15,401 bases of DNA from a virus (lineage: Duplodnaviria; Heunggongvirae; Uroviricota; Caudoviricetes): IMG/VR virus record IMGVR_UViG_2547132277_000010; one strand, written 5' to 3'. The notes beneath the pieces were generated by a model. That model ran no database searches, was not told where the DNA came from, and was given only the letters and a program-made list of their open reading frames with translations. Each line of letters opens with the position of its first letter. The first letter of the stretch is position 1. The translations under genes were made by a program, and so were the position numbers. Below, piece after piece: positions 2,548-15,401 of this stretch.

Positions 2548-2609
2548 AAAGAAGATTTCCAATAATCAGAACAAGTCGGCTCCTGTTTAGTTACGAGCGA
2601 CATTGCTCC

Positions 2610-2637
2610 GTGTATTCACTCGTTGGAATGAATACAC
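2610..2637 (-). other. perfect 9 bp inverted repeat GTGTATTCA / TGAATACAC with a 10 nt loop; candidate RNA processing or regulatory hairpin in the cIII leader
   Basis: Read directly from the sequence; no flanking U-run on either strand, so not a canonical intrinsic terminator. Confidence 0.3.
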
Positions 2638-2651
2638 AGTGCTTATTCGTA

Positions 2652-2966
2652 TTAATAAAACACCCAATTTTCTGTTTCTTGGTTGTGTCCAAAGTTATAT
2701 TCAATATCTGGTGTTGATGTATCAATATTCTTCATCCCATCAACAAGAGTTGATACAACAGCCAAATCTTGTTTGATTCTCATCAAATGGTATTTCTTCC
2801 GGCGCAATAAACTTTCAATGGCAAGTTTCTTCGTCGGGAATGCAAAAGATCTTTCTGCATTTTTTGCTACTTTCTTAATTGCATATCTATTTCTCCTTTG
2901 TTTCCATTCCTGTAACCACTGATTTGGTGCTGGTTTAAAATTAACAATCCAATGCGCAGGAACCAA
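2652..2966 (-). CDS. hypothetical basic protein, 104 aa; doubtful start (TTG); may be the downstream half of a frameshifted gene together with 2867..3187
   Basis: The track ORF begins at TTG 2966 with no in-frame ATG until M62. The reading frame is open back to a stop at 2999..2997 and overlaps the 3' end of the 106 aa ORF. Confidence 0.3.
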   Translation of the reverse strand: MVPAHWIVNFKPAPNQWLQEWKQRRNRYAIKKVAKNAERSFAFPTKKLAIESLLRRKKYHLMRIKQDLAVVSTLVDGMKNIDTSTPDIEYNFGHNQETENWVFY

Positions 2967-3187
2967 CCATGCATAATGCTCTGTCTGATGAAAAGCTTAT
3001 ATTGAAGTGCGAATATTTTGATTCCATCTTCTTCAACTGTCGCTTGGAATCTCCAGAAAACAGGCATTCCATCATGTTCAGTTTCTGATTTAGGAAAAGG
3101 TACGCTCCATGATTTTGTCATATCTAACCTCAAATAAGTGGTTTGCTGCCAAAACAATGAACCATCCGGAAATTCCAGATAGTTCAT
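2867..3187 (-). CDS. hypothetical protein, 106 aa
   Basis: ATG at 3187 overlaps the TGA of the upstream 74 aa ORF (ATGA). Its last ~33 codons overlap the 104 aa ORF and look less protein-like. Confidence 0.5.
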   Translation of the reverse strand: MNYLEFPDGSLFWQQTTYLRLDMTKSWSVPFPKSETEHDGMPVFWRFQATVEEDGIKIFALQYKLFIRQSIMHGWFLRIGLLILNQHQISGYRNGNKGEIDMQLRK

Positions 3188-3408
3188 AATTCACTCTTCA
3201 ATACTTCCAACTTACTAATCGCCGAAAGATATCCGCGCTGATAGGGCATCATCATTCCTTCGAGCTTGCCACTTCTTAACTCCTCCCTGAGCAATTGTAT
3301 TGCTTGATCAATAACCTCTGCCTTAGCGTCCTTTATGGCTTGCTTGCGGGGCTTTGCTTTCTGCTTTGGCAGATTTCTCAAGCATGATGGAATGTATGTC
3401 TGATTCAT
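3184..3408 (-). CDS. hypothetical small protein, 74 aa, immediately downstream of N
   Basis: ATG at 3408 (the track starts one codon earlier at GTG 3411). AGGTAAG lies upstream. No family recognised. Confidence 0.55.
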   Translation of the reverse strand: MNQTYIPSCLRNLPKQKAKPRKQAIKDAKAEVIDQAIQLLREELRSGKLEGMMMPYQRGYLSAISKLEVLKSEL

Positions 3409-4256: not shown

Positions 4257-4286
4257 AGAAAACCCGGCGCTGAGGCCGGGTTTTTC
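4257..4286 (-). terminator. bidirectional intrinsic terminator (AAAA-AACCCGGC-GCTGAG-GCCGGGTT-TTTTT) ending the cI / accessory-gene operon
   Basis: 8 bp GC-rich stem with runs on both sides, placed directly after the stop of the 258 aa ORF. Confidence 0.65.
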
Positions 4287-5062
4287 TAGGCTACCAGAGA
4301 CTCAATCCAAGAGTCTCTGGTATGGAATGGCAACACTCGTGCGGTATCATTAAATAGTAGTGATAGTTGCTGTAGCTCAGGTGTTAACCCATCGCTGTCA
4401 ACTATTACAAATCTATTGTTTATGTCAGGAACGACCTGACTTAAGTCAACAATCTTCCCAACTGTTGAGTGGGCAGTATTCCATCCCTTACTGCTGGCAA
4501 GGCTTACCGTAAACCCGCGTTTTGGTGGTATTAGTCGAGACTCATTCCTTAGCGTTAACGGAACAGTAATGTTATGCCCACTAATACCTTTCACTTTTTC
4601 CTTTAAGGCTAGTCGCTTCCCAAGCCCTGCTGATTTTAAGTAACTGATTACACATTTTTCGAACTTATCGTCTTTGACCTCAGCATACCAATCAGCAGTT
4701 TGGGCGGATGCAAGAATCCCACCACGAATAACATTTGCAGTTACCTGTCCAACGGACGACTCATCTGCCCACGCAGATATCTCTCCAGAGTCATTTAATG
4801 AAATTCCTTGCGAAGCGAGTGATGACCTGATCAGATCAATTTTCTTTTTAGTCAGGTGGATGCCGCGTGATTCAATATTCATCAATGTATCGCAGTAGTC
4901 TGTAACCCTATACTGACCACTCATCTCTTGAACGAATACACTTATCTGCTCACAATCATCGTAGTATGTGAATGGACTAATAACGCGCAGCAACGTGTCG
5001 CTCATTGGGTGGCATTCAAACCCGAGCTTAGATATGACTGTTGAACACGTTACATTTCCCAT
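4286..5062 (-). CDS. hypothetical protein, 258 aa; distal gene of a two-gene accessory cassette in the rexAB-equivalent position
   Basis: ATG at 5062 lies 10 nt upstream of the stop of the 180 aa ORF (13 nt overlap); AGGT is upstream. No family recognised and no obvious transmembrane segments. The locus is visibly more AT-rich than flanking phage DNA. Confidence 0.75.
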   Translation of the reverse strand: MGNVTCSTVISKLGFECHPMSDTLLRVISPFTYYDDCEQISVFVQEMSGQYRVTDYCDTLMNIESRGIHLTKKKIDLIRSSLASQGISLNDSGEISAWADESSVGQVTANVIRGGILASAQTADWYAEVKDDKFEKCVISYLKSAGLGKRLALKEKVKGISGHNITVPLTLRNESRLIPPKRGFTVSLASSKGWNTAHSTVGKIVDLSQVVPDINNRFVIVDSDGLTPELQQLSLLFNDTARVLPFHTRDSWIESLVA

Positions 5063-5592
5063 GATAACTGACCTGATTTATCTTGATTAGGTAAAGGTGG
5101 GCTGCCTTCATATATGATATTAAGCGCCTCGCAAAAATAATTCCAGTAGCCAAAAAAATCATCTGGCTTGATGTTCGTTTCAAGCTTAAGTGCAATTTCT
5201 TCCCCAGCTGATTCGAAGTACATGTGATAGTGAGGACCTCGAGCCACCTCAACAAAATCTGGATGGTTCACTATAGATTTATTACGGTGTGGCTTGTTAT
5301 CCGCAGGGTACGGATCAAGCGCGTAAATGCGCCTGTCATGAAGAAACATCACAAATGAAATCTTCACTATATCCACCCCTTCAACGATAGGAGGACGCCA
5401 GTGAAGCATAAATCTTATGCCTGTGATTGGGTTGCCAATTTCATCAAAAGCTTTGAGATCCAATTTAAACCAGATTGGGGTTCGTCCCTCACTTCCGGTC
5501 CATGTAACTCCGCTAAAAGTTACTTTTTTCAAGCGAGTAATAGCTTGGTCAACCTCTTTCTGGGTAGGCTTAAAGTCGCCTTTTTTAGCCAC
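5050..5592 (-). CDS. hypothetical protein, 180 aa; proximal gene of the accessory cassette downstream of cI
   Basis: Longest ORF begins at GTG 5592 with no nearby in-frame ATG; GGTGA lies about 9 nt upstream. Same strand as cI, 97 bp downstream of its stop. No family recognised. Confidence 0.7.
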   Translation of the reverse strand: MAKKGDFKPTQKEVDQAITRLKKVTFSGVTWTGSEGRTPIWFKLDLKAFDEIGNPITGIRFMLHWRPPIVEGVDIVKISFVMFLHDRRIYALDPYPADNKPHRNKSIVNHPDFVEVARGPHYHMYFESAGEEIALKLETNIKPDDFFGYWNYFCEALNIIYEGSPPLPNQDKSGQLSWEM

Positions 5593-5689: not shown

Positions 5690-6397
5690 TCACGAACTTT
5701 TCAGCCACTCCCTTGCCTCGATGTCATCCAGATGGCGAGATTGCTTCAGAATACCAGCCACATACTCCACCTTTGCTACTTGATGATAAGGCAACGTTAT
5801 TGGCCTATGGTCCTGGTTGATGCTTGTAAACTGGTATTCTCCGTCTCTGTCATAGCCAAGAACTTTGATCATGTTGTGTCCTTCAACGGTTCTGACAAAC
5901 ACCTCATCACCCGGGAATACTTTGGTGTTAGGCTCAATGAGTACATATTCTCCTGATTTTATTCTAGGCCACATGCTGTCTCCTTTCACACGAAGACCAA
6001 AGGCATCTGGATCATCGCTATAAATCTTGAGCCACCCATCGCGCTCTTCGGTCATCTCGATGGCACCATCAACACCAAGAATTGCCTCACCAACCACGCG
6101 CACTAACCCTTTTTTTAATTTGCCAACAAATGAAAGAGTATCTTCATCATTCGCTCCATTTAACGAAGTGCCGTGCTGAAGCCAAACAACATCAACGTTT
6201 AGAAATTTCGCAAGCGCATTCATTTTTTCCTGACGCGGTAAAGACTCAGCATTAAACCACTTGCTAACGCCTTTGGACGAAAGAGAAAGGGCACGGGCTA
6301 TAGCCATTCCCCTACCATGTTCATCAAGACCAGCTTCTTTACAGGCTTGCGCTAGCCGCTGGGCGAATTCTTTGCGCACTTTTTCATTCTGAACCAT
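5690..6397 (-). CDS. cI: CI-type prophage repressor (N-terminal HTH, C-terminal LexA-like S24 peptidase domain), 235 aa
   Basis: HTH region MAIARALSLSSKGVSKWFNAES and C-terminal GDSMWP...VLIEP motifs typical of autocleaving repressors. Divergent from the cro-like gene. No Shine-Dalgarno before the ATG, consistent with a leaderless pRM transcript as in lambda. Confidence 0.9.
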   Translation of the reverse strand: MVQNEKVRKEFAQRLAQACKEAGLDEHGRGMAIARALSLSSKGVSKWFNAESLPRQEKMNALAKFLNVDVVWLQHGTSLNGANDEDTLSFVGKLKKGLVRVVGEAILGVDGAIEMTEERDGWLKIYSDDPDAFGLRVKGDSMWPRIKSGEYVLIEPNTKVFPGDEVFVRTVEGHNMIKVLGYDRDGEYQFTSINQDHRPITLPYHQVAKVEYVAGILKQSRHLDDIEAREWLKSS

Positions 6398-6404
6398 GAG
6401 TACG

Positions 6405-6457
6405 ATACTAAAGCACTTGCAAAAACTTTCAGTTCAATCATAATGTGTACTGAAAGT
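6405..6457. promoter_or_regulatory. OR/pR/pRM switch region: candidate pR (-35 TTGCAA 6417-6422, 16 bp spacer, -10 CATAAT 6439-6444) with operator-like inverted repeats
   Basis: Inverted repeat ACTTTCAGT (6425-6433) / ACTGAAAGT (6449-6457) and the AGTTC-N11-GnACT arrangement shared with the pL region. A weak pRM -10 (TAGTAT) would place the start at the cI ATG. Confidence 0.5.
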
Positions 6458-6475
6458 ACGAAAAAGGATATTCCT

Positions 6476-6703
6476 ATGCAAAATCTTGATGAGCCGATTA
6501 AAGGTGTCGGCATCCCTGAAGTTGCGAAGGCTTGTGGAGTTAGCGAAAGGGCTGTCTATAAGTGGCTCAAAAACGGCTTCCTCCCTAAGACTGAGTTTTT
6601 TGGGAAAACGAAATACGCATCAAAAATCGAAGAGATTTCTGGTGGCAAATATCAAGCAAGCGAAATGCTTGAAATAAGCAAAAAGAACCTTCTGGCTGCA
6701 TAA
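6476..6703 (+). CDS. cro: Cro-like HTH regulator, 75 aa (start at the internal ATG 6476, not the track's 6443)
   Basis: AAGGA lies 8 nt upstream of ATG 6476. HTH VAKACGVSERAVYKWLKNG. First rightward gene, divergent from cI. Confidence 0.75.
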   Translation: MQNLDEPIKGVGIPEVAKACGVSERAVYKWLKNGFLPKTEFFGKTKYASKIEEISGGKYQASEMLEISKKNLLAA

Positions 6704-6756: not shown

Positions 6757-7183
6757 GCCCCAAGATATCTCCTCTCTGGTTATCTGCATCATCGTCTGCC
6801 TGTCATGGGCTGTTAATCATTACCGGGATAACGCCATCGCCTACAAAGCCCAGCGCGACAAAGCCACATCCATCATCGCTGACATGCAGAAGCGTCAACG
6901 TGATGTAGCAGAACTTGACGCCAGATACACAAAGGAGCTTGCTGATGCTAACGCGACTATCGAAAGTCTCCGCGCTGATGTTTCTGCTGGTCGTAAGCGC
7001 CTGCAAGTCGCCGCCACCTGTGCAAAGTCAACGACCGGAGCCAGCAGCATGGGCGATGGAGAAAGCCCAGGACTTACAGCAGATGCTGAACTCAATTATT
7101 ACCGTCTCAGAAGTGGAATCGACAGGATAACCGCGCAGGTTAACTACCTGCAGGAGTACATCAGGACTCAGTGCCTGAAATAA
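6749..7183 (+). pseudogene. Rz: Rz (i-spanin) homolog truncated at the 5' end; an internal ATG at 6884 could give a 99 aa product lacking the membrane anchor
   Basis: Translation [22 protein letters not shown]...RQRDV...YTKELADA...AGRKRL...QC closely parallels lambda Rz (from memory). The frame opens only after a TGA at 6746-6748; the first ~9 codons and any ATG/GTG/TTG start are absent. Confidence 0.75.
6945..7130 (+). CDS. Rz1: Rz1 (o-spanin) outer-membrane lipoprotein embedded in the +1 frame of Rz, 61 aa
   Basis: AGGAG lies 8 nt upstream of ATG 6945. Signal-peptide-like N-terminus with lipobox LVVSAC followed by a proline-rich mature part ([12 protein letters not shown]), the hallmark Rz1 architecture. 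Confidence 0.75.
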
Positions 7184-7215
7184 TTTTTTTGCAAATCACA
7201 AAGTCCATTTAATGA

Positions 7216-7238
7216 GCCTCGCGATGCGGGGCTTTTTT
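7216..7238 (+). terminator. intrinsic terminator after Rz/Rz1 (GCCTCGC-GAT-GCGGGGC followed by TTTTTT)
   Basis: Hairpin with one G-U pair followed by a six-T run, about 30 nt after the Rz stop. Confidence 0.55.
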
Positions 7239-7385
7239 ATGTCCGCAGTAAACACGCTTCACACGCGCGACTTATGAACACAGAACCTTTCAGGATGACC
7301 CTTGAGGATGCCGGTTTGGTGATCGGTGCCTTTCTGTGGGCCGGAATCCTGTGTGACAAGGTTCATCACTAAAAGGTGATCACTG

Positions 7386-7916
7386 ATGAAGTACCCAACA
7401 GTTATTGTCAATGGTGTGTCCGTTCGTGTTGATGAGGATGGACGCTACAACTTAAACGATCTCCATGCAGCAGCAGTTGCAAATGGAGAGGCTACAGAGC
7501 AACAGCGCCCAAGCCAGTTTTTGCGTAGCGCGCAGATAAAACGCTTCATAAAAGCACTGGAGGCCAAAGTGCAAAAAAGCACTTTGGAACAAATTCAACC
7601 ACTTAAAATAATCAAAGGTGGTGCAGAACCAGGTGTGTGGGGTGTTGAACTTCTGGCAATCAGATATGCAGCATGGATTAAGCCGGAATTTGAAATCGAA
7701 GTTTATGAAGTTTTCAAAACGGTTGTCCGTCTCGGCGTTGGCGCAATGTCCCGTCTGAATAGAATCGATCACATCATCAATACTGAAACCAAAGCGATAA
7801 GCCAGTGCGCAAGCCAAATGGCTAAGTGGGGCGTTGGTGGGCGAAAAAGATTGCTTCATGTTGCACGTGAGAGAGCGGCAAATGAAGTGCAAATGTATTT
7901 GCCCGGAATGGTGTGA
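7386..7916 (+). CDS. KilA-N domain protein, 176 aa
   Basis: AAGGTG upstream of the ATG. N-terminal region (RYNLNDLH...FLR...KGG...GVWGV.LLA..YAAWIKPEFEIEV) fits the KilA-N consensus as I recall it. Confidence 0.7.
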   Translation: MKYPTVIVNGVSVRVDEDGRYNLNDLHAAAVANGEATEQQRPSQFLRSAQIKRFIKALEAKVQKSTLEQIQPLKIIKGGAEPGVWGVELLAIRYAAWIKPEFEIEVYEVFKTVVRLGVGAMSRLNRIDHIINTETKAISQCASQMAKWGVGGRKRLLHVARERAANEVQMYLPGMV

Positions 7917-8103
7917 TTTCGCAGGTTAATCCAGTTTTTGCATTACGGCAGTACCGCGAAACAACCCAAGCCAGTAAGTGGGGAAATAACACTGGCAGCC
8001 ACTGAAAGATGAACCTCCTGCCTGATGGCAAAAAAGATTCTTTGTGGTGGCGGACTGATGGAAAGACATCTTAATCAAGCAACCACTCCACAGGGTCATA
8101 ATT

Positions 8104-8499
8104 ATGAACGACCAGCAAATCGAAAAAGAAATCGTTGAGAAAGGCAAAACGGCACCGCGTGTAACACCCGAGAAAATTGAAGGCCTCATTTGCAGTGAGC
8201 ATTTTTTCACTGCTGCGCAGGGTGACCACCAGGCTAAAGAAGATGACCTTATTTATAATCCGGAGCCTTATGTCGAAGCCACCCCTGATGCTCTGCACCT
8301 TCTCACTTTCTGCGTATTGGTACTGAAGAATGGCTTCACCGTTACCGGAGAGAGTGCCTGTGCAAGCCAGGAAAACTTTGATGCAGAAATTGGTCGGAAA
8401 ATTGCGCGTGAAAATGCGGTTAACAAAATTTGGATGCTGGAAGGTTACTTGCTGAAGCAGAACCCGACTATTCCAGTTACTCAATTCCTTGTGGTGTAG
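8104..8499 (+). CDS. phage gp49-like (Phage_gp49_66 family?) protein, 131 aa
   Basis: Compact ORF directly upstream of the portal gene. Family assignment is from memory and uncertain. Confidence 0.45.
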   Translation: MNDQQIEKEIVEKGKTAPRVTPEKIEGLICSEHFFTAAQGDHQAKEDDLIYNPEPYVEATPDALHLLTFCVLVLKNGFTVTGESACASQENFDAEIGRKIARENAVNKIWMLEGYLLKQNPTIPVTQFLVV

Positions 8500-8505
8500 G
8501 TTGAT

Positions 8506-10749
8506 ATGGCAGAAAAAAAGATGACTGACTGGCATCGCAAGGTGCTGTGCAACTTTGATAATGCCTGGTCAGCAACGCAGGATATGCGTGAGCAGATTAT
8601 TGAAGCTCAACGTTTCGTCCGGGTGTCCGGCGCACAGTGGGAAGGCAGCACAAACGCTGGTTACTCATTTGATGAAGGCAGGTTTGAGCATTACCCGCGC
8701 TTTGAGCTGAATAAGATTGCCCGTGAATGTGATCGCATCATTGGCGAGTATCGACAGAATCGCATCAGCGTTAAATTCAGGCCGAAGGATGACAAGGCAT
8801 CGGAAGCGTTAGCCGAAAAGATGAACGGCAAATTCCGCGCTGACTATCAGGAAACATCCGGTGGCGAAGCGTGTGATAACGCATTTGATGATGCTGTAAC
8901 GGGCGGATTCTGTTGTTTCCGCATGTGTGCCGATTACGAAGATGAAATGGACCCAAGTAACGAGCAGCGACGCATCAGCCTTCTTCCTGTTTACGACCCG
9001 GCCACATGCGTCTTCTTCGATCAGGACAGCAAGCAATATGACCGCTCTGATGCTATGTGGGCTATGGAAATGTTCTCCATGACGCCTAAAGCGTTCGAGG
9101 CTGAATACCCTGATTCCATCGCGGCAAGCCTTTCTCGTGATGACACTGGCACTCAATATGACTGGTCAACTCCTGATGCTATCTATGTTGGTCGCTACTA
9201 CGAAGTTCGCATAGAGAAGGTGAAGCTCACAGCATGGCGTAACCCTGTTAGCGGAGAAACGGCAATCTATGATGAAGATCAAATCAAAGATATTGTCGAC
9301 GAGCTGACCGATGGTGCATTCGAACTGATTGGCGAGCGAACGGTGAAGAAGCGCCGCGTTTATTGCGGTCTTCTGTCTGGCGCTGAATGGCTGGAAGAAC
9401 CGAAGCGTATTCCGGGCGAACATATTCCTCTCATCCCGGTATATGGGCGTCGATCATTTGTTGATAATCAGGAGCGAATCGAAGGTCACGCAGCAAAAGC
9501 GATGGATGCACAGCGTCTTGAGAACCTGATGGTTTCCATGATTGCAGATAACGCTACTCAAGCTGGCGGTGATGGCATTCCTGTAGTTGATGTTGACATG
9601 ATTCCTGGTCCTCTCGCCACTCATTGGGCGGAGCGCAACAAAAAGCGCCCGGCGTTCCTGCCGATGGTCAGTCTGAAAAACAAAAACGGAGATATTACTG
9701 CGCAGGCTCAGGTCAGCAGTTATACGCCTCCGACACAAATGCCTCCAGCTCTTGCCGGACTATTGCAGTACACCGGAACGGCTATTCAGCAAATTACAGG
9801 TGCGTCGCAGCTTGAGAACATGCCGAGCAACGTCGCTACCGATACCGTTGATAGCATCTTTAACCGGATGGACACGCAGTCCTATATCTACATGGACAAC
9901 ATGGCTAAATCCATGCGCCGTGCTGGCGTCGTGTGGCTTTCTATGGCTCGTGAAGTCTATGGCAGTGATGCGCCGATGCGTATCGTTAATGAGGACGGCA
10001 GCGATGACGTGGCGCTGATGACTGGTGAAGTGGTTGACCGTCAGACAGGGCAGGTTATCGCGCTTAATGACCTTTCGCAGGGTAACTATGAAGTGACTGT
10101 CGATGTTGGCCAGTCGTTCGCTACTCGCCGTGATGCAACGGTTAAGTCGTTACTTTCCATGCTGGCACTTATCTGGCCACAACGGGCGTTCATCCACTGG
10201 CGCATTCAACTGGCAAAAAGTCTGACCGAGTATAATCGGGTCTATCAATCTGCATTCTCACCGAACTTACTCGAACGCCCGCGTCTGGAAAGCCATCTAC
10301 AAAAACTCCTGACCGATGCCGTGAAAATGCGTGGGCTGATTGCGCCCGCCAGCAAAGAAACCCGTATTCCAAAATCGATATATGAAGGTATCCAGACCAT
10401 TAATCGCAATCTGGTTTGTATGCTGGAGTTGCAAATCAATGCATACTGGGCCACGCGCCCCAGCCATTTCGTGTTATTGAACGCGCAAAAACTTCGTGAT
10501 ACCCAGCATATGATGCAGCAAATACTGCTGAGCCTTGTTCATGCGCTGTACGAAGGTAATCCGCAGCCGGTTTTTGCCAATACGGAAAAATTGAACGATG
10601 CTGTGGAAGAGCTGCGTCAGTTGCTGAATAACCACCATGACCTGAAGGTTGTGGAAACACCAATCTATGGTTATGTGTGGCTGAACATGGAAACGGCACA
10701 TCAGCTTGAGTTGCTATCGAATCTGATTTGCCGGGCCTTGCGCAAATAA
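8506..10749 (+). CDS. P22 gp1-type portal protein, apparently chimeric: portal-like to about residue 555, then ~190 residues of unrelated sequence
   Basis: N-terminal FDNAWSATQDMREQ..., central RRVY...GEHIPLIPVYG and ...VDVGQSFATRRDATVKSLLSML parallel P22 portal segments (from memory). The C-terminal tail (from about 10170) lacks the Q/E/A-rich portal barrel and looks like a different soluble domain. Confidence 0.75.
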   Translation: MAEKKMTDWHRKVLCNFDNAWSATQDMREQIIEAQRFVRVSGAQWEGSTNAGYSFDEGRFEHYPRFELNKIARECDRIIGEYRQNRISVKFRPKDDKASEALAEKMNGKFRADYQETSGGEACDNAFDDAVTGGFCCFRMCADYEDEMDPSNEQRRISLLPVYDPATCVFFDQDSKQYDRSDAMWAMEMFSMTPKAFEAEYPDSIAASLSRDDTGTQYDWSTPDAIYVGRYYEVRIEKVKLTAWRNPVSGETAIYDEDQIKDIVDELTDGAFELIGERTVKKRRVYCGLLSGAEWLEEPKRIPGEHIPLIPVYGRRSFVDNQERIEGHAAKAMDAQRLENLMVSMIADNATQAGGDGIPVVDVDMIPGPLATHWAERNKKRPAFLPMVSLKNKNGDITAQAQVSSYTPPTQMPPALAGLLQYTGTAIQQITGASQLENMPSNVATDTVDSIFNRMDTQSYIYMDNMAKSMRRAGVVWLSMAREVYGSDAPMRIVNEDGSDDVALMTGEVVDRQTGQVIALNDLSQGNYEVTVDVGQSFATRRDATVKSLLSMLALIWPQRAFIHWRIQLAKSLTEYNRVYQSAFSPNLLERPRLESHLQKLLTDAVKMRGLIAPASKETRIPKSIYEGIQTINRNLVCMLELQINAYWATRPSHFVLLNAQKLRDTQHMMQQILLSLVHALYEGNPQPVFANTEKLNDAVEELRQLLNNHHDLKVVETPIYGYVWLNMETAHQLELLSNLICRALRK

Positions 10750-10920
10750 TTCCTAAACTTCAGAATCATCTTGCTGCTGCTTCGATTCAGCAAGGATAAA
10801 GGGTATGATAGTGAAAAGGGATAAAAGCATTGTCATCTGCGGCAGCTATGAGTAATGTTGGCCCTAACGAATAGCGGTTGCTTAAACGAATCCGACTCTC
10901 ACATTATCAGGGGTATAAAA

Positions 10921-11250
10921 ATGGAAACTACCAAGCCTTCATTCCAGGACGTACTGGAATTTGTTCGTCTGTTCCGTCGTAAGAACAAACTGCAACGTGA
11001 AATTCAGGACGTTGAGAAAAAGATCCGTGACAACCAGAAGCGCGTCCTGTTGCTGGACAACCTGAGCGATTACATCAAGCCAGGGATGAGCGTTGAAGCA
11101 ATCCAGGGCATCATCGCCAGCATGAAAGGTGACTATGAAGATCGCGTTGACGATTACATCATCAAAAATGCCGAGCTCTCCAAAGAACGCCGCGATATCT
11201 CCAAAAAGCTGAAAGCTATGGGCGAAATGAAAAACGGCGAAGCGAAGTAA
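10921..11250 (+). CDS. yeeX: YeeX-like DUF496 protein, 109 aa (start at the internal ATG 10921)
   Basis: The translation [28 protein letters not shown]... matches E. coli YeeX as I recall it; the length is 109 aa from this start. Confidence 0.7.
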
Positions 11251-11263
11251 TTCCCGTTTTATT

Positions 11264-11292
11264 CAATGAGGGTTGCCCGGCAACCCTCATTG
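11264..11292 (+). other. perfect 13 bp stem-loop (CAATGAGGGTTGC / CCG / GCAACCCTCATTG) 14 nt after the yeeX stop
   Basis: Read directly from the sequence. No clean U-run follows, so it may be a structured 3' end or a small repeat element rather than a canonical terminator. Confidence 0.4.
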
Positions 11293-11350
11293 CTCATTGA
11301 TTCTTATCTGTGTATCACCGTCATCATTTTCATCTGAGAACCAATCGAAA

Positions 11351-11707
11351 TTAACAACAGCCTTCTTCTGTATGCAGCAAGGCAAAAAGTTCTGTAACTC
11401 CATTGTTATTAACTGCACTGGTTACTAACACGTTGTGCGCTCCAGCTTCCCGTAACCAACTTTTCACCAAAGATATTTGTTCCATGCCGGCTAAATCTGC
11501 TTTGGTTACTACTCCAATGACAGGGTGATTCATGGCCCGGTAGGGCGTTTTTACCTCTAATTCCTGCTTCAGCGCTGAGATTCCTGCTTGTTGCCGGAAA
11601 AGCAGGCACCTGCCGTCTGAACGGTATCGATCCGGAAGCGTATCTGCGCCATATTCTGAGCATACTGCCGGAATGGCCCTCCAACCGTGTTGACGAACTC
11701 CTGCCAT
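11351..11707 (-). pseudogene. fragment of a YeeP/YkfA/YfjP-type GTPase (C-terminal portion only)
   Basis: Contains VIGVVTKADLA...HNVLVTSAVNNNGVTELFALL, like the G4/G5 end of this GTPase family. The N-terminal part is junk and a second overlapping frame (11409..11726) is also open, indicating a degraded gene. Confidence 0.35.
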
Positions 11708-12147
11708 GGAACGTAGTTCTCACCAATAAATAAGCGTCAATACGGTGCTCCGTTGACGCTTACTTTAATCCGTTTTCTGAGCTTAGATTTTTCTGTTCCT
11801 ACCCAGACCGTGGATTTGGAATTCATTTTTTGTCAGGTCAATGCTAATCGTTAAAACGGCCATAACGCACCTCCACTGGAAGGTTTATCAGTAATATCCT
11901 ACCGTTGCTTCATGGTCGGGGCGTCCATTCCATTATTATCGGTTTTCCTTTCTGTTTATAAATGAAAACGCCAGCTGTATTCAGGCTGGCGTCAGGGGAA
12001 ATGAAGCCTGTTGAGTGAGATTCACCGGTTCTGGTGCAGAAGCTGCAGATGGCGCAGGGTAAGGACATCTTCTCTTGCCTGCTTAATACAGGACAACAGT
12101 GCTGTTTCTGTGGTTAATGGCACTATACCCTGCATCACTGCATTGTC

Positions 12148-12342
12148 TTACAGCAACTGGTGAGGGCTGGCATAAGTTGCCGGTGTTTCGGTAGAGTCAC
12201 GGTCATCCACCACGCGGAGTGAATAACCTTTTTCAGCGGCCTTATTAATCAGTTCAGTGATATTAACACCATCAATGTCAACGACAATGTGCCCCATATC
12301 CAGCGCCTGTACGTTAACGCTGTCGGCTTCCAGTGTCATCAT
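12148..12342 (-). CDS. yeeW: YeeW-like small protein, 64 aa
   Basis: Its ATG overlaps the TGA of the restored cbtA reading frame (ATGA). Position and size match the gene that follows cbtA in CP4-44-type islands. Confidence 0.55.
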   Translation of the reverse strand: MMTLEADSVNVQALDMGHIVVDIDGVNITELINKAAEKGYSLRVVDDRDSTETPATYASPHQLL

Positions 12343-12712
12343 TTCGCCTCCGGATACTTACCCAGGGTAATGTTATTTACCGTTCTGTAATTGTCGCGGG
12401 TCATCAGGCCGGTCGCCCTGCGAGCCCGGAGGATATCGATGCTGTTTATTAACTGAGAGCGGGTACAGGCGCTGAATCCCGGCTGGTCGGTAGCACCAGC
12501 GCGTATTTTTCCACGAGAAAGTTCACCGCATCACACAGTGAAATGCCTGCCTCAATATGCTGCTCAATCACACGTTCATCGGCAAAAGGTGTGTCATTCA
12601 GTGTGAGGCCATAGTGCTGGTCCAGCAGTCGGGACAGCAGTATCTGCCAGATTTCAACAGGAGACGGGCGAGAACTGGTCGCCTGCCCGGGTAATACAGG
12701 TAATGTTTTCAT
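12339..12712 (-). pseudogene. cbtA: CbtA (YeeV)-family type IV toxin gene disrupted by a 1-base frameshift near 12493
   Basis: The track ORF gives 87 aa ending ...[19 protein letters not shown]. The next frame continues [46 protein letters not shown], matching the YeeV C-terminus as I recall it. One base appears to be missing after GTGC. Confidence 0.7.
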
Positions 12713-12800
12713 ACTGAAGATTTTCCTGATATGCAGATATAAAAATGGAAAAGTGGCGTGGTGAAAACACCAGGCCGTAGCAGAAGGCTATTCTGGAGAG

Positions 12801-13169
12801 TTAATTTTTCATTTCGGGCGTCGGATAAACAGCCAGATAAACGTAACCACAACTGCTGAGGGTATCGGCTTTGCAGGTCAGCCCTTTTGCATACAGCGTG
12901 ACGGTATGCTGATGGCGGGGATTCAGTTCACCGCTGGTGAGCATGAGTTCCAGTTGTTTCATCAGCAGCGGAAAGGCCTGGTCCAGGTGGTACGCATCTG
13001 CATCGCTGAACAGGCCTCTGATACCGGCGCGGTCGGCAAGGTAATGCAACCGGTTACCCTCCTGCACCAGACGTGCCCCGAAACAGGGCGTCACGGTGCA
13101 GGGCAGCCCCCACCAGGGGCGGTCGTGATTGTCGTCGGGAAGTGTTGTCCCGGGGAGTGTGTCTGACAC
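12801..13169 (-). CDS. cbeA: CbeA (YeeU)-family type IV antitoxin, 122 aa
   Basis: MSDTLPGTTLPDDNHDRPWWGLPCTVTPCFGARLVQEGNRLHYLADRAGI... matches YeeU/YfjZ-family antitoxins from memory. Starts at GTG 13169 with AAGGA upstream. Confidence 0.85.
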   Translation of the reverse strand: MSDTLPGTTLPDDNHDRPWWGLPCTVTPCFGARLVQEGNRLHYLADRAGIRGLFSDADAYHLDQAFPLLMKQLELMLTSGELNPRHQHTVTLYAKGLTCKADTLSSCGYVYLAVYPTPEMKN

Positions 13170-13242
13170 GATAAAATCCTTACAGAAAATCGGCTAAGAA
13201 TGGTCCGGTAGTGGCGATAATTCTGCTCATCAGAATTCCCAC

Positions 13243-13464
13243 TCAGTTCAGGGTGACGCTCATCAGCCGGACATACGGACCAAAACTGTCCTTACGACGT
13301 TCAGCAAACACGGCCAGCACACCGGGAATATCCTGCACTTCACGACCGGTATACGCTTCAGCACTGCCATGCCAGCGGTATTTACCGGTACAGAACGGAA
13401 AAAGACGGGATGTCGGATGTTGTTGGTGAATACGCATGGCTTCACCACGGGTGATAATTTTCAT
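13243..13464 (-). CDS. DUF987 protein (YeeT/YpjJ/YkfH family), 73 aa
   Basis: MKIITRGEAMRIHQQHPTSRLFPFCTGKYRWHG... is typical of this family. GAGGT lies upstream of the ATG. Confidence 0.8.
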   Translation of the reverse strand: MKIITRGEAMRIHQQHPTSRLFPFCTGKYRWHGSAEAYTGREVQDIPGVLAVFAERRKDSFGPYVRLMSVTLN

Positions 13465-13526
13465 AATGGGATACCTCTGAAGACAGAAGATAAAAGTGAA
13501 AACAGGTGTGATGTGGTTGTGAAGGG

Positions 13527-14003
13527 TTAAAGCAGACCATGTTCGGCAAAGGAGAAAACCTGGTTGCCACCGACTATCAGATGGTCCGGCACCCGGATAT
13601 CCACCAGGCCCAGTGCCTGTACCAGACGTTCCGTGATAAGGCGGTCTGCCTTACTGGGTGTGACTTCACCGGAGGGGTGATTGTGTGCCAGCACCACGGC
13701 AGCGGCATTGTGGTACAGGGCGCGTTTAATCACTTCCCGGGGATGGACTTCCGTGCGGTTGATGGTGCCGGTAAAGAGGGTTTCACCGGCAATCAGTTGA
13801 TTCTGGTTATTCAGATACAGCACCCGGAATTCTTCACGCTCCAGTCCCGCCATGTTCAGAATCAGCCATTCCCGTGCTGCACGGGTGGAGGTGAAGGCCA
13901 CGCCGGGTTCATGAAGATGGCGGTCCAGGGTTTTCAGGGCCCGTTGAATGAGGCTGCGCTCGCCGGGCGTCATCTCTCCGGGCAGAAAGGAAAGTTGTTG
14001 CAT
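13527..14003 (-). CDS. RadC-like JAB/MPN domain protein (YeeS/YfjY family), 158 aa from ATG 14003
   Basis: Contains the HNHPSG motif and surrounding RadC-like sequence. GGAGAG lies 7 nt upstream of ATG 14003; the track's ATG at 14018 has no RBS. Confidence 0.85.
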   Translation of the reverse strand: MQQLSFLPGEMTPGERSLIQRALKTLDRHLHEPGVAFTSTRAAREWLILNMAGLEREEFRVLYLNNQNQLIAGETLFTGTINRTEVHPREVIKRALYHNAAAVVLAHNHPSGEVTPSKADRLITERLVQALGLVDIRVPDHLIVGGNQVFSFAEHGLL

Positions 14004-14018
14004 TGTGCTTCTCTCCAT

Positions 14019-14498
14019 TCAGTCGATGATGCGCATAATGGCGCTGCATTCCGGATGCTGCAGGGCGTAATCCCGCAACCGGTAATAATGGACCGTCATG
14101 GCATAATTCTCCGTACGACAGGCATGATGACTGTACGTCATCAGACAGGCGGCAATACCGGCGGCTTCCGGGCTCATTTCTGCGCGGTTACCGTTCATGG
14201 CATTGAACAGTACCCATGTTTCGTCATCATCGTCATCCGGTTCGGGTGCCATAAATGCCCCGCCGTTGTTCAGGGTGTACAGATTCCAGATACCACCGCA
14301 GTAGTCTTCGCACAGACGGTCCATCCAGCCGAAGACACGGGGCTCCAGGGTCACCCACTGTGGAATGAGGCCAAAATGCTGCGGCCAGAAGCTGATGCGC
14401 TGTTCATCAGGGACGAGGCTGGCAACCAACTGAGGCGGATTATTCTCTGGTGTTGTAGCTGAATAAATTGTGGGGGTATTCTGAGAAACGGTTTTCAT
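14019..14498 (-). CDS. antirestriction protein (YfjX/YafX-type), 159 aa
   Basis: AAGGAG lies 7 nt upstream of the ATG. Acidic stretch PEPDDDDDETW and the C-terminal region are typical of this family in CP4-type islands. Confidence 0.8.
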   Translation of the reverse strand: MKTVSQNTPTIYSATTPENNPPQLVASLVPDEQRISFWPQHFGLIPQWVTLEPRVFGWMDRLCEDYCGGIWNLYTLNNGGAFMAPEPDDDDDETWVLFNAMNGNRAEMSPEAAGIAACLMTYSHHACRTENYAMTVHYYRLRDYALQHPECSAIMRIID

Positions 14499-14579
14499 GA
14501 GATAACTCCTTAAATAACAAATAAATGTGTGTTTTTCAGGAACGAAAGCTGAATGATTCCCTCACTCAGGGAAACGGCA

Positions 14580-15401
14580 TCAGCGCAGGCTCTCCAGCAT
14601 CGTTTCTGCCATCACCCACAATGCGCGATTGAGCTTAATGTCGGTATCAATGCTGTGAATGGCACGGGTATGGATACGTTTTCCTTTTGCACTGCGACCG
14701 GAAATCCCGCCTTTCAGCATATTCTCTTGGATGGTCTGATATGCGCTCCACAGGTCCTTACCGTAATCCTCCCGGCGTCGCGGCGTCAGAATGTCGGCGG
14801 TGGTGACGGGCTGATGTTCGTCACCATAACGGTAAGTCAGTGCCGCCTGTGCCAGCGCCTGGCGTGCCGGTGGCGGCAGGACCAGCGACTGCATGGCATC
14901 ACGCTTCTCCTCTATCCGGTCAAACACGCCCACCACCTCGTAAGCCCCTTCGATAACTTTCTCCACTACATTTCCCCGGTGTGGAACACGCACTTCCCCC
15001 AGAGACTGGCCACAGACGCACCCGTTCTGGCAGACGAACCTGAAGTAACCCGGCAGCATCTGGTAGCTGGAGGTACCGTCATGAGAGTTGAGCAGAATAA
15101 TTTCAGGGACATGTTCTCCGTTTATCTCTCCGGCCCGCCGCAGACGCAGCATGTGTTTTGTGTATCCCCGGCGGCCCGGGTCGCGCACACGGGTCTGGCA
15201 GGCGAAGAACGGCTGAAAGCCTTCCCGCTGCAGATTTTCCAGGACGGTAATGGTGGGAATGTACGCATACCGTTCACTGCGGGAGGTGTGCCGGTCTTCC
15301 CCAAAAATACTGGGTACATGGCGTATCAGTTCTTCATGTGTCAGCGGACGGTCACGGCGTATCTGGTTTGCAGCATAACCAAAACGACTTGCTAATCGCA
15401 T
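14580..15401 (-). CDS. DUF932 protein (YfjQ/YafZ family), 273 aa; its ATG is the last three bases of the window
   Basis: Length and sequence character match the DUF932 proteins that precede the antirestriction/RadC/TA module in CP4-type islands. Confidence 0.8.
   Translation of the reverse strand: MRLASRFGYAANQIRRDRPLTHEELIRHVPSIFGEDRHTSRSERYAYIPTITVLENLQREGFQPFFACQTRVRDPGRRGYTKHMLRLRRAGEINGEHVPEIILLNSHDGTSSYQMLPGYFRFVCQNGCVCGQSLGEVRVPHRGNVVEKVIEGAYEVVGVFDRIEEKRDAMQSLVLPPPARQALAQAALTYRYGDEHQPVTTADILTPRRREDYGKDLWSAYQTIQENMLKGGISGRSAKGKRIHTRAIHSIDTDIKLNRALWVMAETMLESLR

Follow-up and report, generated by a model that had tools for sequence, protein, structure and literature searches.

The viral record IMGVR_UViG_2547132277_000010, a stretch of 15,401 nt referred to here as the window, carries an open reading frame (ORF) of 747 codons at positions 8506-10749 of the plus strand. 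The deposited name of its product at NCBI is "portal protein [Escherichia coli]". Does this ORF encode a phage portal, or is it the outcome of a rearrangement? An initial annotation, prepared from the letters of the sequence alone, regarded it as a chimera in which about 555 residues resembling the P22 portal are followed by a foreign tail. We confirmed the ORF with its ATG start in the window and found that it consists of codons 1-556 of a P22-like portal gene (CUS-3/Sf6-type) joined in frame to codons 161-352 of E. coli yeeA. It is almost certainly a deletion scar in a grounded prophage at sbcB and not a gene in its own right, and nothing that we found contradicts this reading. The phenomenon is ordinary prophage decay.

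Make-up of the hybrid ORF

The N-terminal part of the predicted product was recognized by the Pfam family P22_portal (PF16510) with 483.2 bits and an E-value of 1.5e-144, the score cut-off of the family being 26.1 bits. The match covered residues 15-559 and only positions 2-516 of the 594 positions of the profile. The best match among structural chains was the Sf6 portal (7sfs), in which residues 7-558 of the query corresponded to residues 6-556 of the 708-residue chain (E 8e-206). In the case of the P22 gp1 portal (3lj5), residues 12-554 were aligned with residues 10-540 of 725 (E 4e-69). The intact portal (732 aa) of a P22-like prophage in strain ECE170 showed 96% amino acid identity over residues 1-558 and was divergent thereafter, and the portal part is 97% identical in nucleotide sequence to phage CUS-3. 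Judged by these alignments, it is nearer to CUS-3 and Sf6 than to P22 itself. No portal homology was detected past residue 558, so the portal is not of full length; the last ~176 codons, which make up its C-terminal part, are gone. In the P22 portal, as known from its published structure, the C-terminal part forms a long helical barrel.

The remaining part of the product comes from the host. Residues 556-747 are 100% identical to residues 161-352 of E. coli YeeA (WP_001200905.1), and the native stop codon of yeeA is kept. This result gave substance to the suggestion of the initial annotation that the tail is the 3' end of yeeA, the usual neighbor of yeeX (tmaR), fused in frame. No Pfam domain was matched in the last ~190 residues, which represent the C-terminal half of YeeA. 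The fusion lacks codons 1-160 of yeeA and with them the hydrophobic segments as well as the original promoter and start of the gene. Hydropathy analysis (Kyte-Doolittle, 19-residue windows) gave no value above 1.6 for the fusion, while many windows in residues 19-115 of YeeA exceed it; thus, the portion of YeeA that was kept is its predicted soluble C-terminal half. The GC content, which the initial annotation proposed to plot, falls across the junction from ~0.53 (positions 9600-10200) to ~0.46-0.48 (positions 10200-10800). Each side of the ORF has a near-identical, full-length counterpart elsewhere, and on this sequence evidence the origin from two parents is far beyond chance.

The neighborhood of the ORF is not that of a working portal gene either. 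In the ECE170 prophage, where this context is intact, the small and large terminase genes (terS and terL) precede the portal gene, and the scaffold and coat genes follow it. In the window, a truncated gene of the Gp49 family lies upstream and tmaR lies downstream, and no phage genes are present downstream of the fusion ORF.

Junctions of the three deletions

The boundary between the portal and yeeA (junction 3) was determined by megablast of positions 7000-13000 against 5,426 complete RefSeq genomes of E. coli. The matches split cleanly. Up to position 10173 they are P22-like prophage DNA, and from position 10170 on they are the order yeeA-tmaR(yeeX)-yoeF-yeeW-cbtA-cbeA, with 100% identity in many strains. 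A 551-bp query centered on the junction was split at the same boundary. A three-way alignment of the window, the ECE170 portal gene, and yeeA of strain AR_0085 placed the crossover in the tetranucleotide TATC, which is common to both parents and is bordered by patchy similarity (TTACT..ATG.TG). The breakpoint, previously expected near position 10170, is therefore known exactly. Base 10170 is the third codon position in both parents (codon 555 of the ORF and codon 160 of yeeA), and as a consequence of this shared phase the fusion is in frame. Positions 10170-15401 show 99.94% DNA identity with the chromosome of AR_0085, which has an ordinary yeeA-tmaR-CP4-44 region. The tmaR gene starts 172 bp past the stop codon of the fusion, close to the ~170 bp noted in the initial annotation, and the spacer is the same as in ordinary E. 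coli.

The layout of the locus before this deletion was found in strain E143, which has a prophage with the same integrase at the same site. The order there is sbcB, int, a P22-like prophage ending with the tailspike gene, attR, the insertion sequence (IS) IS2, dacD, sbmC, yeeA, and tmaR, and from position 10170 on the window and the E143 backbone have 99.97% identity. The E143 arrangement is the undeleted layout of the locus, in agreement with the earlier proposal that the fusion was formed when the remainder of the prophage was deleted. The deletion took the rest of the virion genes along with attR, dacD, and sbmC, and it also cut off the membrane half of yeeA. Its size is estimated at ~16.4 kb of phage DNA and 2.7 kb of host DNA (4.0 kb with IS2), ~19-20.5 kb altogether; this value, like the other deletion sizes given here, is derived from the relatives ECE170 and E143 and not from the actual parent prophage. 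The E143 prophage is itself defective. At positions 34310-34743 of its record, a truncated Q gene is joined to a truncated capsid-related gene with loss of the lysis, terminase, portal, and scaffold genes, which is an independent decay of a related prophage at sbcB.

A second junction lies directly upstream of the portal start. BLAST against ECE170 showed that window positions 6766-8462 correspond to 8767-10463 of the ECE170 record and window positions 8461-10173 to 12821-14533. Compared with ECE170, 2,357 bp are missing between positions 8461 and 8462, comprising the 3' end of gp49, a DUF2560 gene, a hypothetical gene, terS, and nearly all of terL. The initial annotation had pointed to a small gp49-like ORF in the place of the terminase genes and had taken it as a sign of a second deletion; both the Gp49-family ORF and the deletion were found. 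The Gp49-family gene is a small fusion itself, with its last codons swapped for 12 out-of-frame codons of the terL 3' remnant; the ECE170 counterpart has 375 bp. A longer microhomology at junction 2 was sought with another terL allele (WCHEC050613), and none was found, the exact sharing being AA only.

The third deletion (junction 1) was absent from the initial annotation. It joins the cro-cII intergenic region to about codon 7 of Rz through a 5-bp microhomology, and it removed cII, the replication genes, the nin region, Q, the holin and lysozyme genes, and the start of Rz. The tetranucleotide TATC is common to junctions 1 (TATCT) and 3 (TATC), which may be a coincidence. All three junctions have the form of microhomology deletions, in that few bases are shared and IS ends, att sites, and long repeats are lacking; the lengths of the microhomologies hinge on the reference alleles (ECE170 and others), which are not the true parent. 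Each of the three junctions is absent from the 5,426 complete genomes, and these contain no intermediate that would reveal the order of the three deletions. The sbcB site, the loss of attR, dacD, and sbmC, the microhomology at the junctions, and the clonal spread described below likewise go beyond what had been noted before. The coordinates of the features are collected in Table 1.

Table 1. Features of the prophage remnant and its right flank in the window.
Feature	Position	Strand	Basis
Immunity region (repressor, pR-like promoter, operator-like palindrome, cro-like gene)	5690-6703		Pfam, promoter scan, inverted repeat, gene calls
S24/LexA-type repressor, intact	5690-6397	minus	Pfam
pR-like promoter, upstream of cro-like gene	6417-6444		promoter scan
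Operator-like palindrome, overlapping the pR-like promoter	6425-6457		inverted repeat
cro-like helix-turn-helix gene	6476-6703	plus	Pfam, gene calls
Deletion junction 1 (TATCT), cro-cII intergenic region joined to Rz codon ~7	6766-6770		alignment with strain 20.1 cro-cII and ECE170 lysozyme/Rz, annotations, BLAST end points
Rz spanin gene without first ~7 codons, Rz1 embedded	6771-7183	plus	PF03245, profile 26-125/126 on ORF 6884-7183; gene calls Phage_lysis, Rz1
Strong terminator-like hairpin (9-bp stem, 6 GC pairs, T-run), directly after Rz and upstream of KilA-N	7214-7234	plus	
KilA-N domain gene, intact, as in ECE170	7386-7916	plus	PF04383, E 7e-18
Gp49-family gene	8104-8499	plus	PF13876, E 7e-34
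Deletion junction 2 (AA at 8461-8462), then last ~43 bp of terL and 1-bp spacer before portal start	8461-8505	plus	BLAST, annotation, alignments
Portal, 5' three quarters (codons 1-556)	8506-10173	plus	PF16510, 7sfs, ECE170 portal, CUS-3
Deletion junction 3 (TATC, 4 bp), common to portal and yeeA parents	10170-10173		three-way alignment, BLAST end points
Host yeeA 3' part (FUSC family), codons 161-352 and native stop	10170-10749	plus	amino acid identity, AR_0085 DNA, hydropathy
tmaR (yeeX, DUF496), intact host gene	10921-11250	plus	PF04363, AR_0085 annotation

The prophage remnant at sbcB

The element that carries the fusion is a defective prophage of ~10 kb at the known sbcB attachment site. 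The source contigs reach 1.5 kb further to the left than the window, where sbcB is directly followed by a tyrosine integrase gene and a small xis/AlpA-like gene. Homology with prophage-free sbcB ends 19 nt inside the gene, and the att core lies in its first codons. The native 5' end of sbcB with its upstream sequence (attR) is absent from the source contig. The same sbcB-int left junction was found in 442 complete genomes, including many of O157:H7, with 98-99% identity, and the integration of Stx2c prophages at sbcB has been documented (PMC8309913).

The genes that survive are, from left to right, int and xis, an early-left arm of lambdoid type (Rad52-type recombinase, kil, cIII, and N), a two-gene insert, the repressor gene, the cro-like gene, the truncated Rz with Rz1, the KilA-N gene, the truncated gp49, and the portal-yeeA hybrid. 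In comparison with ECE170 and E143, the genes for the lytic cycle (replication, Q, lysis, terminase, virion) and attR are lost, as in a defective prophage. Without the replication genes, Q, holin, lysozyme, and terminases, the remnant cannot replicate, lyse the cell, or package DNA, and without attR it can no longer excise.

We propose the following origin of the locus. A temperate P22-like phage with a CUS-3/Sf6-type morphogenesis module and a lambdoid early region would have integrated in the first codons of sbcB, and decay of the prophage would have followed in three deletions, each RecA-independent and at a short microhomology. The largest of them would have started at portal codon 556 and run through the scaffold, coat, head-completion, ejection, immI, and tailspike genes, continuing through attR with the native sbcB 5' end and then through dacD and sbmC as far as yeeA codon 161, the two ends being joined at the shared TATC. 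The reading frames would have matched by chance (1 in 3), which would allow translation from the portal ATG to the native yeeA stop over 747 codons. The deletions were probably illegitimate and independent of RecA, as the anatomy of the junctions (2-5 bp of microhomology, no IS end, no att sequence) suggests.

Transcription of the fusion can also be considered from the genes that are left. Q and the late promoter are gone, so the fusion would be transcribed only from the pR-like promoter, by way of the cro-like gene, the Rz remnant, the KilA-N gene, and the truncated gp49. After the deletion at junction 1, the immunity region is the likely source of any transcription into the fusion ORF. Read-through from pR would have to cross the hairpin behind Rz, which would limit it, and the intact S24 repressor would keep it repressed except on SOS induction. 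Expression of the fusion is probably low and repressor-controlled. Neither the portal C-terminus nor the membrane half of YeeA is left in the product, the partner genes are lost as well, and for this reason the fusion would be unable to play either parental role. Most likely, it is a non-functional relic that is silent under the prophage repressor.

The two-gene insert (4286-5592, minus strand) consists of ORFs 4286-5062 (258 aa, DUF1828) and 5050-5592 (180 aa, DUF6978-like). It sits between N and the repressor gene, the position of rexAB in lambda and of sieB in P22, and it was matched by PADLOC to the candidate defence system PDC-M24 (M24B, E 6.5e-7; M24A, E 3.8e-4). It is possible that the insert is a prophage-borne anti-phage module kept in the remnant. 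The lowest GC content of the window (0.36-0.40) was observed at positions 2600-3200, a region with small minus-strand ORFs that lack Pfam matches; two ORFs, 2652-2966 and 2867-3187, were scanned with PADLOC and gave no match.

Alternative origins and relation to known elements

An artefact of assembly, in which a contig wrongly joins prophage reads to the yeeA region, would agree with the absence of junction 3 from all 5,426 complete genomes. An exact-sequence look-up in NCBI, ENA, and Logan retrieved 58 contigs (73 index blocks) with the 747-aa protein, some of them above 1 Mb and the longest of 4.87 Mb, and the window is matched with 100% identity by three independent assemblies over 13.8-15.4 kb, that is, over the full length or as far as the contig extends. 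Moreover, 4 bp of shared sequence is too short to mislead an assembler, and dacD and sbmC, which should intervene between sbcB and tmaR, are missing in the source contigs. The probability of a misassembly is negligible, and the fusion is a real clonal feature of one E. coli lineage. We regard it as just as improbable that the ORF is a genuine modular portal, in which a phage gained a YeeA-like domain as a new functional C-terminus. Such a portal would explain the frame that is open over 747 codons and fits the name under which the protein is deposited. Its tail is, however, 100% identical to a resident host gene, and the identity runs on for 5.2 kb into the host chromosome; phage genes downstream are lacking, and the terminase, scaffold, and coat genes are all absent. 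The search of 50,697 phage records by tblastn with the 191-aa tail gave one match only, to a record without a portal, and thus no full-length homologue of the fusion in an intact phage, an outcome in line with the chimera proposed at the outset. The single match, OR845312.1, was considered as a phage with a YeeA-type tail and was rejected. It is an unverified 3.6-kb contig of sbmC-yeeA-tmaR from another enterobacterium and hence bacterial DNA. The record is labelled 'UNVERIFIED_ORG: Escherichia phage ECO95 1-6-1', with a coverage of 2.3, and its product has ~80% amino acid identity to E. coli YeeA.

With a real fusion of phage and host DNA, the agent of the deletion and the reason for its persistence have to be weighed. 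A mobile element or site-specific recombination might have been at work, either as an IS-mediated adjacent deletion or as an aberrant excision by the integrase. IS2 lies between attR and dacD in the AR_0085 and E143 backbones, so that an IS was probably present in the deleted interval, and the integrase gene is intact. At the junction itself, the portal passes directly into yeeA at TATC with neither an IS end (IS2 terminal sequence) nor an att-like sequence, the att core is in the first codons of sbcB and not in the portal gene or yeeA, and the other two deletions in the element bear the same microhomology signature. We consider this route very improbable. The same slight weight is given to the idea that the fusion was kept for a function, whether as a dominant-negative portal subunit made during the SOS response that poisons the assembly of superinfecting P22-like phages, or as a means of bringing tmaR under pR read-through. 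The portal start codon and its upstream sequence are kept, the ORF is preceded by a pR-like promoter, an operator-like palindrome, and an intact repressor gene, other accessory genes including the PADLOC candidate pair have been kept, and the lineage is seen as dozens of isolates. Were this idea true, the scar would have persisted on account of a benefit, through phage interference or through prophage control of tmaR. Against it, an in-frame result is expected by chance in one case of three, the terminator-like hairpin stands between pR and the ORF, clonal descent explains the spread of the lineage equally well, and the material examined offers no precedent. All copies of the fusion ORF are identical, and consequently they give no signal of selection and no measure of selection or decay of the fused ORF. 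A deletion scar remains by far the best account of the ORF.

Compared with the portals of P22-like podophages (Sf6 gp3, 7sfs; P22 gp1, 3lj5 and 5jj3; CUS-3), residues 1-556 of the fusion are those of a typical member. The fusion stops at the equivalent of residue ~556 of 708 in Sf6 and ~540 of 725 in P22, and its terminase, scaffold, and coat neighbors are absent. E. coli YeeA, in turn, is a FUSC-family inner-membrane protein of 352 aa. The fusion locus shares with it residues 161-352, the native stop, the 172-bp spacer, and tmaR, but lacks codons 1-160 and thus the hydrophobic (membrane) half. The integrase, xis, and the sbcB-int left junction are the same as in other sbcB prophages (Stx2c of O157:H7 and the P22-like prophage of E143), from which the remnant differs by the loss of the right two thirds, attR, dacD, sbmC, and half of yeeA. 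Unlike the Stx2c prophages of O157, it had a P22-like virion module, and the window contains no stx genes.

The cryptic prophages of E. coli K-12 (CP4-44, DLP12, Rac, e14, and Qin) are defective remnants as well. Like them, the sbcB element was grounded by deletions of lysis, replication, and virion genes while the integrase, immunity, and accessory genes were kept. It also resembles them in having one deletion end in flanking host DNA, and it adjoins a CP4-44-type island on the right. What sets it apart is that its deletion makes a long in-frame hybrid ORF of phage and host, which was automatically annotated as a phage protein. The element is a specific, previously unlabelled instance of cryptic prophage decay. 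It provides a clean and fully reconstructible case of the grounding of a prophage by a few microhomology deletions, one of which reached host DNA.

These results have some practical consequences. The label "portal protein" adds 191 residues from the tail of a host membrane protein to alignments of the portal family, and prophage-finding tools can be led by the chimera to report an intact head gene. One E. coli lineage, from which dacD (PBP6b), sbmC (gyrase inhibitor), and yeeA have disappeared as well, can be recognized precisely by the three unique junctions. In a PCR assay for sbcB occupancy, strains of this kind would presumably give a signal for the left junction and none for the right one.

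In the right part of the window, the yeeA fragment with tmaR (10750-11250 and flanks), ~1.1 kb in length, is all that is left of the native core sequence between two degenerate mobile elements. The sbcB prophage remnant adjoins it on the left side, and the CP4-44-type island follows to the right. The toxin ORF cbtA of this island (12449-12712, minus strand) has only 87 codons and is annotated as frameshifted in AR_0085 and E143, and the antitoxin gene cbeA is intact.

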